This document shows positions 13,476-63,850 of a stretch of DNA of 64,000 bases, one piece after another. This DNA comes from Thermoplasmata archaeon (GTDB taxonomy: Archaea > Thermoplasmatota > E2 > JACPAO01 > JAHFTW01), in assembly GCA_034667725.1 (NCBI GenBank), contig JAXDQS010000003.1, positions 160,001-224,000 of the forward strand, read 5' to 3'. Position numbers and translations under genes: made by a program. Position 1 is the stretch's first letter, and every line of letters begins with the position of its first letter. The notes beneath the pieces were generated by a model. The model did no database searches and was not told where the DNA came from. It saw only the letters and a list, made by a program, of their open reading frames with translations.

Positions 13476-14081
13476 GTGGAGCCCACCCCGCTCTACTTCA
13501 CCTACCCGTCGCCGTTCTGCTACCTCGCCTGGCAGCGGACCCGCCTGCGGCCCGAGCGCTACGCCAACGTCCGGCTGTCCTGGACCCCGATCCTGTTCCG
13601 CCGCCTCATGGCCCTGACGGGCGGCGCCGCCGGCGGGTCGCCGCCGTTGCAGCTCAAGTACGCCTACGCGGACGCCGAGCGCTGGGCCAAGGCCTACGGC
13701 GTGCCGTTCGCCAACTTCGACCGCAGCGCCCCCGCCGACCAGACGGCGCACAAGGTCCACCTGCTTGCCCAAGACGCCGGCGGCGGCTGGGAGGCCCGGT
13801 GGCTCCAGGCCGCCTTCACGGCCGGCCGCATCGAAGGCCGCGACCTGACCGACGCGACCGTCGTGCAGGCGTTGGCCCGCCAGGCCGGCGTGCCTGGGCT
13901 CGCGCGCCTGGGCGAGCCGGAGCTGGACGCCCGGCTGGAGGCGAACACGCAGCGGGCGATGCGCGACGGCGTGTGCGGCGTGCCGTTCCTGCGCCACGGC
14001 GGCGAGGCCTACTGGGGCAACGACCGCCTGAGCTGGCTCGAGGCCCGGCTGGCGGGCAAGCCGCACCCGGAGGCGCTGTGA
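13476..14081 (+). CDS. DsbA/HCCA isomerase (GST-kappa-like) family protein
   Basis: YFTYPSPFCYLAW; GVCGVPF; YWGNDRL. Confidence 0.85.
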   Translation: MEPTPLYFTYPSPFCYLAWQRTRLRPERYANVRLSWTPILFRRLMALTGGAAGGSPPLQLKYAYADAERWAKAYGVPFANFDRSAPADQTAHKVHLLAQDAGGGWEARWLQAAFTAGRIEGRDLTDATVVQALARQAGVPGLARLGEPELDARLEANTQRAMRDGVCGVPFLRHGGEAYWGNDRLSWLEARLAGKPHPEAL

Positions 14082-14677
14082 TGCAGGTCCATCTCTACTT
14101 CGCCTACGGCAGCAGCTACAGCTACCTCGCCTGGGCACGCATCACGAAGGCGCTGGCGAAGCGCTGGGACGGCGTCGAGGTGCTGTGGAAGCCGGTGCGC
14201 TTCGCCCGCCTCATGGAGCTGCAAGGCCACGACGGCACCGGCCCCAGCAACGAAGGCCCCTACGCGCGGCGCGACACGGCGCGGTGGGCGCTGGCCTACG
14301 ACGTGCCGATGCGCTACCCGCCCAGCTACCCCATCGACTCGTCCGACGCCGCCCGCGCCCACCTCCTGGCCGAGATGGAGGGGCCCGCCAAGGAGGCGGC
14401 CTGGCTGGCGGCCTGCATGGCGGCCCATTGGGAGCAAGGCCGCGACATCAGCGACCCCGCCGTGCTGGAAGACTTGGCGCGCGAGGCCGGCCTGCCGCCG
14501 CTCGGCCCGCGCCTGCGGTCGGAAGGCATCGAGAAGCTCCTGGAGGCCAACACGCAGGAGGCGGTCGCCGCCGGCGCGCCCGGCGTGCCGTTCGCCGTCC
14601 TGGAAGGCGAAGGGTTCTGGGGCAACGACCGGCTCGACTGGGTCGAGGCCATGGTCGAGGCGATGCGGGGCGGGTAG
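14081..14677 (+). CDS. DsbA/HCCA isomerase (GST-kappa-like) family protein, paralog 2
   Basis: YFAYGSSYSYLAW; GAPGVPF; FWGNDRL; TGATG coupling to the upstream paralog. Confidence 0.85.
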   Translation: MQVHLYFAYGSSYSYLAWARITKALAKRWDGVEVLWKPVRFARLMELQGHDGTGPSNEGPYARRDTARWALAYDVPMRYPPSYPIDSSDAARAHLLAEMEGPAKEAAWLAACMAAHWEQGRDISDPAVLEDLAREAGLPPLGPRLRSEGIEKLLEANTQEAVAAGAPGVPFAVLEGEGFWGNDRLDWVEAMVEAMRGG

Positions 14678-14830
14678 GGTCGCGCGGCAGCGCGCGCCGA
14701 AGGCGAAGCCGAGGCGGCCGGTGGGTCACGCCCGGAGGGCCGTGACCCGCCAGGGGGTCCAAGGGGCGAAGCCCCTTGTGCGGGCAACGACCGGCTCGAC
14801 TGGGTCGAAGCCATGGTCGAGGCGATGCGG
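14620..14830 (+). mobile_element. 113-bp GNA-hairpin insert flanked by a 49-bp direct repeat of the CDS 3' end
   Basis: 14620-14668 is repeated at 14782-14830 (1 mismatch); the insert contains CCAGGGGGTCCAAGGGGCGAAGCCCCTTG, shared with 63769-63797; mobility is inferred. Confidence 0.7.
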
Positions 14831-14850
14831 ACGCCCTGAGGGGCCCCCGG

Positions 14851-32688: not shown

Positions 32689-32742
32689 GGCGAAGCCGGC
32701 CACAGGAGGCCCATATTTAGCGGCTTCCAAGCCCGTGCATCC

Positions 32743-32846
32743 CAAAAAGCCGACGAAGGGATTCAACGCCGGGGGCTGCGCCCCGCGGGCCGCCCGCGCG
32801 TCGTGGGGCCTGCGGCCCCACATAGCAAAAAGCCGACGAAGGGATT
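32743..32846 (-). repeat. 21-bp direct repeat of the tRNA-Thr(TGT) 3' end around a 62-bp GCA-triloop hairpin insert
   Basis: CAAAAAGCCGACGAAGGGATT at 32743-32763 and 32826-32846; the insert on the minus strand has GTGGGGCC-GCA-GGCCCCAC and GGGGC-GCA-GCCCC. Confidence 0.75.
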
Positions 32847-32902
32847 TGAACCCTCGACCTGCGGTTTACAAGACCGCTGCACTACCGCTATGCTACGTCG
32901 GC
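32831..32902 (-). tRNA. tRNA-Thr (TGT)
   Basis: Cloverleaf GCCGACG/CGTCGGC, anticodon arm GCGGT-CT-TGT-AA-ACCGC, GGTTCAAATCC. Confidence 0.96.
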
Positions 32903-63582: not shown

Positions 63583-63656
63583 CGGGACTTAGTCTAGCTC
63601 GGTTAGGCGCCAGACTGTAAATCTGGAGTAGGCCGGTTCAAATCCGGCAGTCCCGA
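63583..63656 (+). tRNA. tRNA-Tyr (GTA), intronless, archaeal type
   Basis: CGGGACT/AGTCCCG acceptor stem (C1-G72), CCAGA-CT-GTA-AA-TCTGG, short variable loop. Confidence 0.95.
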
Positions 63657-63850
63657 CTTCTTTCCCCCCTTCTTCCTTGGTTTCTTCGTCCGTGAAGGGT
63701 GCGCGTCAGCGCCGCCGATGCGCAGCGAGGCGCAGGGGTGGTCGTCGAGCGAATGCGAGGACGACCGCCCAGGGGGTCCTAGGGGCGAAGCCCCTAGCTG
63801 CGGGTGAGGCCGGTTCAAATCCGGCAGTCCCGACTTCTTTCCCCCCTTCT
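63630..63850 (+). mobile_element. 133-bp GNA-hairpin insert flanked by a perfect 44-bp duplication of the tRNA-Tyr 3' end
   Basis: 63630-63673 is identical to 63807-63850; the insert shares its architecture and 27/29 bp core with 14750-14778; mobility is inferred. Confidence 0.72.

Follow-up and report, generated by a model that had tools for sequence, protein, structure and literature searches.

Among the described systems that come close to the hairpin cassettes treated here are the WHO elements at the FBA1 gene of yeast, which, reportedly as characterised by Coughlan et al. in 2020, insert near the gene end, bring a replacement 3' end with them and push the old end downstream, where relic ends stack; they are said to target this one gene. 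The att sublocations of integrative elements that target tRNA and tmRNA genes were reportedly described by Williams in 2002, and CIMEs, integrase-less derivatives, are said to have been treated by Pavlovic et al. in 2004. In Escherichia coli, Egan and Landy reportedly found in 1978 that repeat units lie behind the tRNA at tyrT, each with a copy of the last bases of the tRNA; to our knowledge, these repeats have not been reported to be dispersed among protein genes, nor has a hairpin core common to them been described. Fungal mitochondria carry mobile GC clusters, double-hairpin elements and endonuclease open reading frames (ORFs) accompanied by a C-terminal duplication. The cassettes presented here were found in a stretch of 64,000 nucleotides (G000:C3:160001-224000; hereafter the window) within the 2.32-Mb, 71% GC and 90%-complete genome of a soil Thermoplasmata archaeon (Thermoplasmatota, as the protein neighbours also indicate). 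They are folded and gene-less, they lie at the 3' ends of protein and tRNA genes, frequently between two versions of the gene tail which appear to have evolved separately as coding ends, and their pattern fits no described mobile element that we found.

Two such inserts occur in the window, both on the plus strand and in the sense of their host genes. Copy A, at positions 14669-14781, measures 113 bp and lies between direct repeats at 14620-14668 and 14782-14830 that agree in 48 of their 49 bases. Copy B, at 63674-63806, measures 133 bp, and its direct repeats at 63630-63673 and 63807-63850 agree in all 44. These inserts and their 49-bp and 44-bp repeats had been located by an earlier model-made reading of the DNA (the sequence-only reading), and its coordinates were borne out. 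The host of copy A is a DsbA-family thioredoxin-fold gene (13976-14677, plus strand, start approximate; Pfam DSBA, 4e-30). The upstream repeat is part of the working gene, the last codons of which, GGC GGG TAG (14669-14677), are supplied from the cassette side, and the frame stops at the TAG at 14675-14677 such that the 5' motif of the cassette, GTAGGGT, provides the host stop codon. The displaced old tail (14782-14839) consists of the second repeat followed by the original last codons ACG CCC TGA, and it reads in frame to a terminal MRTP; the single difference between the two repeats, GAG/GAA, is synonymous. Copy B is hosted by tRNA-Tyr(GTA) (63583-63657, plus strand; detected with ARAGORN and Rfam), and its repeats comprise the 3' 28 nt of the tRNA and 16 nt of trailer, the second copy being displaced downstream. 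Each junction of copy A was covered separately and without error by assembled contigs of run X1; no contig in that run spanned the whole copy, the contigs breaking inside the cassette, and neither an empty-site nor a circle-type joint for copy A was seen among them. The DsbA-family gene also has a tandem paralogue just upstream (window 13830-14050 versus 14340-14650), about 70% identical over 215 nt.

Alignment of the two inserts supports the ordered architecture that the sequence-only reading had assigned to both, at a level far beyond chance as judged by a covariance model and by shuffles (see below). The shared order is AGGGT, hairpin 1, a GA-flanked nested hairpin 2, hairpin 3, AGGGGGTC and a terminal hairpin. 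In copy A these parts correspond to hairpin 1 at 14681-14694, hairpin 2 at 14695-14716, hairpin 3 at 14720-14751, the linker AGGGGGTC at 14752-14759, the terminal C-GAA-G hairpin at 14760-14778 and a tail TGC at 14779-14781. Insert B opens with a T-rich 22-nt spacer (63674-63695), followed by the cassette core (63696-63797) and a tail CTGCGGGTG (63798-63806). Hairpin 3 is long and its sequence has changed between the copies with the pairing kept, and the terminal hairpin, C(A/T)AGGGGC-GAA-GCCCCT(T/A)G, carries a compensatory swap.

The core is about 105 nt in length, with four hairpins and no ORF. A covariance model (R1), built on five copies and used together with iterated nhmmer, scored copy A at 105 bits (E 3.5e-14) and insert B at 75 bits (E 2.6e-9), and it detected 12 copies in the genome with E values from 2e-15 to 5e-3, or about 15 when fragments carrying only the fourth hairpin are included. 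Only four weak matches were obtained among 40 relatives, 12 of them of the same genus, and the core family is lineage specific. In an alignment of 14 copies, 95.6% of cells are paired and both sides have changed at 29 of 34 pairs, a level reached by none of 500 shuffles and compared with about 42% pairing in slid controls, where the alignment behind these statistics was itself fitted to the covariance model. The cores differ from one another by 14-25%, with compensatory changes.

Ten copies from this genome contain 13 G·T and no A·C pairs, so that the folded strand is the gene-sense strand; this constitutes modest evidence, with eight of the 13 G·T pairs sharing one column. The proposal that the element acts as folded single-stranded DNA was supported to the extent that the gene-sense strand folds, while calculated folding energies separate neither the strands nor DNA from RNA; the GNA triloops suggest DNA folding and the tolerated G·U/T wobbles suggest RNA folding. 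Three of the four loops are indeed C-GNA-G triloops, as had been noted, in agreement with the stable DNA mini-hairpin cited in that reading, while the reported tandem GA element proved to be an asymmetric 3x2 internal loop. Within the window, only tRNAs reached the Rfam gathering score, and nothing relevant was found in Rfam at E<=1 for nine loci with cassettes or the terminal module, which supports the earlier claim of an undescribed, non-autonomous structured family that lies at the 3' ends of both protein genes and tRNAs. A full-text literature search for the hairpin sequence gave no match, and searches by phrase turned up nothing beyond WHO elements, homing endonucleases and a single mention of tRNA-linked repeats.

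Each copy lies 0-60 nt past the stop codon of a sense-strand ORF or past a tRNA. The hosts are unrelated and include genes for the DsbA-family protein, an HxlR regulator, an FAD-linked oxidase, a DUF1015 protein, an FHA-domain protein, a methyltransferase, the large subunit of DNA polymerase D, an ACT-domain protein and an M20 peptidase, as well as tRNA-Tyr and tRNA-Lys. Duplicated gene tails of 12-95 bp flank 10 of about 15 copies and all are in the gene sense, such that the orientation first recognised for copies A and B extends to every other repeat-flanked copy. For related cores in relatives, which lie antisense to their tRNA, this does not hold, and orientation is therefore a family trait and not a rule. 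These antisense cassettes, together with the extension of the copy B repeat 16 nt past the mature tRNA end, contradict the suggestion that insertion occurs at transcript 3' ends. The displaced tail begins 0-9 nt 3' of the terminal hairpin and, in those copies that were read at that junction, the tail homology mostly ends at, or no more than 4 nt from, the stop codon. Several cores start with TGA or TAG, copy A being the case where such a TAG serves as the new stop. The first one to three codons of the displaced tails are corrupted towards a G-rich motif (TGCGGG, CTGCGGGTG, ATGGGGTG or GGGGTG) and, for the HxlR regulator, the corrupted edge codons replace a conserved Glu-Tyr. A raw scan of the genome for direct repeats was too noisy to be of use, and an exact-protein match with the same structure comes from what is probably the source assembly itself and so provides no independent confirmation.

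The nature of the flanking repeats emerged from a comparison of their codons. In the interior of the tails of seven cassettes, covering 91 codons, 17 codons differ, 16 of them synonymously and one non-synonymously, with stop-to-stop changes included and no indels; the synonymous share expected is 22% for random substitution and 36% if a tail is duplicated and then drifts (P=1e-6). For stop-aligned duplicated tails throughout the genome, in ORFs of at least 250 amino acids, the ratio of synonymous to non-synonymous differences is 38:7, and the same pattern recurs in further cassette families; the genome-wide count comes to roughly 20 gene ends. Some tail pairs differ at between 3 of 10 and 5 of 12 codons yet encode identical peptides. 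Since the differences are almost exclusively synonymous, both tails must have evolved as coding ends and at least one of them derives from another lineage. The flanking repeats, judged by these codons, are thus alleles that both evolved under coding constraint and not plain target-site duplications, and the earlier view of them as simple duplications generated on insertion does not agree with the interior differences. Moreover, the displaced tails show no neutral decay and, given that the cores have diverged by the amount stated above with compensated stems, the cores diversified before these particular insertions took place. One apparent tail (G000:C4:13088) was removed from the scan because it represents the shared C-terminus of two neighbouring genes (G000:C4:12770-13090) and not a cassette; the pair carry an identical 23-residue acidic C-terminus with nine synonymous differences, and are read as ribosomal stalk P0/P1-type genes from the intervening ORF rather than from a family search.

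Empty alleles, which had been proposed as a check, were found in relatives for both copies. The DsbA-family site is uninterrupted, with a single tail, in the same-genus genome G009, and no insertion interrupts the tRNA-Tyr site of 7 of 11 genus members. Two occupied tRNA-Tyr sites are of a different construction: in G001 (L133, G001:C53) the last ~20 nt form a stack of three copies that follow different hairpins with other cores, and in G004 (L135, G004:C9) a 65-nt duplication, which comprises nearly all of the tRNA from the D-arm to the 3' end, lies behind a related terminal hairpin and then CGCGGGG. The position of the junction thus shifts from the variable loop in the present genome (G000) to the acceptor stem in G001 and the D-arm in G004. 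A second 3' end occurs 50-240 nt downstream from 10 of the 47 tRNAs of the genome, with many junctions in the T-loop; tRNA-Leu(CAG) carries a stack, and the tRNA-Leu cassettes have an antisense arm that was not seen in the present core family.

Two further tRNA genes show related arrangements. In the window, tRNA-Thr(TGT) (32831-32902, minus strand) has a second 3' end (AATCCCTTCGTCGGCTTTTTG) about 50-90 nt downstream, at about 32735-32830, behind a different short hairpin cassette. For tRNA-Ser(TGA) (G000:C2:79234-79317), a 29-nt copy of the tRNA 5' end occurs about 110-140 nt upstream and is possibly a 5'-side counterpart of the 3'-end cassettes.

The terminal module, consisting of GGGGTCC and the C-GAA-G hairpin followed by a short G-rich tail, extends well beyond the archaeal family. 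Exact matches to its 25-nt form, GGGGTCCNAGGGGCGAAGCCCCTNG, occur in Firmicutes, Planctomycetota, Acidobacteriota, Leptospirales, Margulisbacteria and Streptomyces, on 15 contigs of species-representative genomes, as well as on 61 metagenome contigs, and the module is always at the element end, in several unrelated bacterial repeat families. One of these, a repeat of about 95 nt, carries three consecutive units of GGGGTC(C) and hairpin, the last of which is the 25-nt module (L060, L065, L066, L072, L074, L089 and others, which are moss-associated metagenome contigs prefixed Ga0116226_), and 3-10 nt separate its module end from the stop codon belonging to a convergent gene. One bacterial copy of the module is flanked by a 38-nt duplication (L062). 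No protein recurs beside the module at the 15 genome loci and 61 metagenome loci, and viral contigs gave no matches. Look-alikes on plasmids and phages are weak (E 0.3-3), several of them at the mobC/oriT region of small plasmids, where the motif is confined to eight related plasmids, and we regard them as a lead only and not as evidence. Those directly upstream of mobC/relaxase operons are at L039:1501-1525, L040:1501-1524 and L041:238-260, on Psychrobacter, Proteus and Roseomonas plasmids, respectively, and an oriT has been predicted in that region upstream of mobC/relaxase (PMC3632715). On the Roseomonas plasmid, an inverted repeat and TAAAGTGCGCCCTT occur about 20 nt after the module look-alike. 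This TAAAGTGCGCCCTT region resembles the MOBQ nick consensus.

A census of enzymes that might move the cassettes yielded few candidates. No match was obtained in the 90%-complete genome to Y1 HUH (PF01797), relaxase, RVT_1, the TnpB zinc-ribbon domain or the IS110 DEDD domain; the blank obtained for the IS91-type Y2 model is uninformative since that model also matched none of 14 control genomes. The earlier attribution of the element to an HUH/rolling-circle or reverse-transcriptase (RT) process is therefore unsupported. In three module-holding bacterial genomes, no module was found within 1.5 kb of Y1 genes. The sole recombinase-type gene is a divergent tyrosine recombinase (G000:C10:27029-28177) that matches Phage_integrase (PF00589) at 26-27 bits and scores 22 bits against the XerA/integron-integrase equivalog, for which the cut-off is 220. 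Within the genus it has a patchy, multi-copy distribution, with relatives carrying one to six copies at 27-37% identity, and it adjoins no cassette. A 58-nt inverted repeat with 74% complementarity encloses the gene (G000:C10:26900-28250; L120:1389-2715); the 5' half of a minus-strand tRNA-Pro(TGG) gene forms one arm, and a diverged copy of that half forms the other.

When set beside the known systems, the cassettes show partial similarities to several. As in tyrosine-integrase elements and CIMEs, they are flanked by direct repeats of the 3' end of the target gene, the replacement end keeps the gene intact, the repeats can differ and the tRNA junctions often lie in the T-loop; they differ from these in their length of about 105 nt, in being gene-less and in having no linked integrase that we could find, and the occurrence of at least 12 unrelated targets, with variable junctions at tRNA-Tyr, contrasts with the one or narrow att site and fixed crossover of tyrosine-integrase elements. 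In sitting at a gene end beside a displaced old end they are like the WHO elements as reported. Homing elements of this type are reported to carry the gene for an endonuclease by which the empty allele is cut (PMC7282813), whereas the cassettes encode nothing, lack a homing endonuclease ORF and occupy many genes. The tyrT repeats differ in that the present cassettes are dispersed at protein genes and share a common hairpin core. With the fungal mitochondrial GC clusters and double-hairpin elements they have in common small GC-rich hairpin inserts that spread in genomes and tail duplications that preserve the host gene, but the mitochondrial elements belong to another domain of life, have other sequences and their tail duplications accompany an endonuclease ORF.

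A second group of similarities involves small transposon derivatives. Like the REP, BIME and REPIN sequences associated with RAYT, and the PATEs derived from IS200/IS605, the cassettes are short, GC-rich, gene-less hairpin repeats located just after genes, strand-specific and with hairpins near their ends. They differ from REP and REPIN sequences, which have a conserved 5' GTAG-type tetranucleotide beside an imperfect palindrome of 20-40 nt, in lacking a conserved GTAG, which is present only in copy A, in having AGGGT and AGGGGGTC as conserved single-stranded motifs, and in the failure to find a Y1 HUH (RAYT) gene in the genome. REPs and PATEs do not duplicate their target, in contrast to the gene tails that flank most of the cassettes, and no fixed target tetra- or pentanucleotide was recognised of the kind expected 5' of an IS200/IS605-derived PATE, although hairpins near both ends do agree. 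Miniature elements of the DDE type (MITEs), with their terminal inverted repeats and fixed target-site duplications of 2-10 bp, are also unlike the cassettes, the ends of which, AGGGT... and ...CCCCTNG with the G-rich tail, are not mutually inverted, and the repeats, long and variable, far exceed DDE target-site duplications as the sequence-only reading had maintained. In contrast to integron cassettes, where an attC hairpin comes after a promoterless ORF in arrays beside intI/attI, there is no ORF, and the sole PF00589 match falls far short of the integron-integrase cut-off. Non-LTR or SINE-like retroposons that use target-primed reverse transcription share the variable repeat length and 5' truncation; they are unlike the cassettes in that RVT_1 was not found and the tails are allelic rather than identical.

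The explanation towards which we tentatively lean is that of a gene-less, horizontally circulating cassette, moving as a unit of gene tail and core that recombines into the tail of its target and pushes the resident tail aside. Such a cassette would land at or just past the stop codon of a gene, or in the 3' part of a tRNA, and would end up between two versions of the tail, the one joined to the gene working and the other displaced. The moving unit, probably a small circle or a tandem multimer generated by recombination between the flanking repeats, would recombine back into the tail of the same gene in a different strain, either host recombination or a recombinase supplied in trans presumably being responsible, and at least one tail would thereby arrive from another lineage with the cassette. 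New targets might be reached by rarer joins at short matches, between the TGA or TAG at the 5' end of the core and a stop codon, or between the G-rich 3' tail and a GGG/GGAG site. As to the direction of transfer that this presumes, pairing in the tRNA acceptor stem, used as a clue to polarity, provided two weak and ambiguous cases.

Several observations weigh against this circulating-cassette explanation. The three edge codons were excluded from the codon test after the data had been seen and, with edge codons included, the ratio becomes 19:11, the non-synonymous differences being at the edges. A comparison of GC content at third codon positions for the incoming tail carried no polarity signal (10 versus 9), and in the nearest homologue found, with 86% identity, the site is empty and the sequence agrees with the downstream tail at only one of three informative sites. 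While flanks were tabulated as proposed and 12-95 bp duplications found for most copies, about 5 of 15 have no detectable duplication. No intermediate, whether circle or multimer, and no enzyme was observed. Recombination that far outpaces mutation could also yield synonymous-only differences, through allelic imports after insertion. In addition, the repeats of copies A, B and the ACT-gene copy are near-perfect, and the core provides the copy A stop codon, as expected of a duplication made at insertion; the cores truncated at the 5' or 3' side, with one mosaic core, are equally in keeping with template switching. In this alternative, which we consider unlikely, the duplication is made at insertion, without a dedicated enzyme, by microhomology-driven template switching on a hairpin-rich template or by hairpin-protected flap ligation, with allelic exchange following later; a nascent strand would copy all or part of a cassette during replication or repair at gene ends and switch back upstream, duplicating 12-95 bp. 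Variable repeat lengths, the short junction matches (TGA/TAG at the core 5' end, the GGG-rich tail against a target GGG/GGAG), the clustering of substitutions in the first one to three codons after the junction, as predicted for an error-prone restart, and the failure to find transposase-type genes in the genome would all follow from it. It is less easily reconciled with the all-synonymous differences at 3/10 to 5/12 codons, which require diverged donors and crossovers inside 30-90 bp of homology, or with displaced tails free of neutral decay, and the exact 25-nt module shared across phyla points to sequence-specific recognition and not to a purely physical process.

The involvement of dedicated enzymes in trans was also weighed. 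Miniature att-site elements, CIME-like and moved by a tyrosine recombinase, would carry a replacement gene end and exchange strands at a short overlap beside the terminal hairpin; the repeats, which represent the 3' ends of protein genes and tRNAs, are not the same on the two sides, in the manner of attL and attR, many tRNA junctions lie in the T-loop, and the only recombinase-type gene of the genome has the patchy, multi-copy distribution of a mobile-element integrase. We nevertheless find this improbable, given at least 12 unrelated targets for one core family with no common target sequence, a tRNA-Tyr junction that differs in position between species, an integrase gene beside which there is no cassette but an inverted tRNA-Pro fragment, and no recognised arm-type repeats. 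The model of the sequence-only reading, in which a folded single-stranded DNA is moved by an HUH enzyme of the rolling-circle or relaxase type, or by an RT, acting in trans, appears quite improbable because the genome yielded no match to Y1, relaxase or RVT_1, the Y1 genes of three module-holding bacteria have no module nearby, the 76 module-holding loci have no protein in common, the plasmid matches are weak and limited to few lineages, and the tails are allelic and not fresh duplications. It does draw on the constant position of the terminal hairpin at the element end in archaeal and bacterial families, as at IS200/IS605 right ends and Helitron 3' ends, on the C-GNA-G triloops, on the weak look-alikes at mobC/oriT of small mobilisable plasmids and on the greater number, in our own tally, of 5'-truncated than of 3'-truncated fragments, as occurs in target-primed reverse transcription. 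Finally, the cassettes might not be mobile themselves but constitute a beneficial element of the 3' untranslated region, an RNA stabiliser or a terminator, spread by ordinary homologous exchange and gene conversion. The sense orientation directly past stop codons, the G·U-compatible wobbles on the sense strand and the conserved structure are in line with this, but we hold it to be very improbable since it leaves unexplained the duplicated gene tails, the stacks behind tRNAs and the occurrence at a dozen unrelated genes in one species against near-absence from 12 congeners, and related cassettes lie antisense to their tRNA.

Another dispersed family in the same genome (G000), with a palindromic core CAGATTCCACAGA...TCTGTGGGAATCTTCC(C/G)AATCTG, occurs for example at C3:456007, C3:396160, C10:146780 and C6:17576; overlap with ORF ends is frequent, and the family has no relation to the hairpin cassettes.

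Returning to the circulating cassette, it is a possible if doubtful extension that it represents a new class of selfish DNA in archaea and bacteria, in which a gene-less, self-folding unit, equipped with a spare copy of the tail of the gene that it targets, would home by recombination to this gene in other lineages and push the resident tail aside. Its conserved terminal signal would be recognised by a factor acting in trans that is universal among hosts or widely shared, and the displaced tails would be a fossil record of transfer between lineages. If this is correct, DNA without genes spreads and rewrites the last codons of essential genes and the ends of tRNAs, including those of the DNA polymerase D large subunit and of 10 of the 47 tRNAs in this genome. 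It would add a class of mobile element beside transposons, integrative elements, introns and inteins, and would account for many of the pseudo-3'-end fragments that confuse the annotation of uncultured archaea and bacteria. The allelic tail pairs would then provide a built-in marker of the partners with which DNA is exchanged in soil populations, and the exactly conserved 25-nt module may serve as a handle for finding the factor that moves the cassettes.

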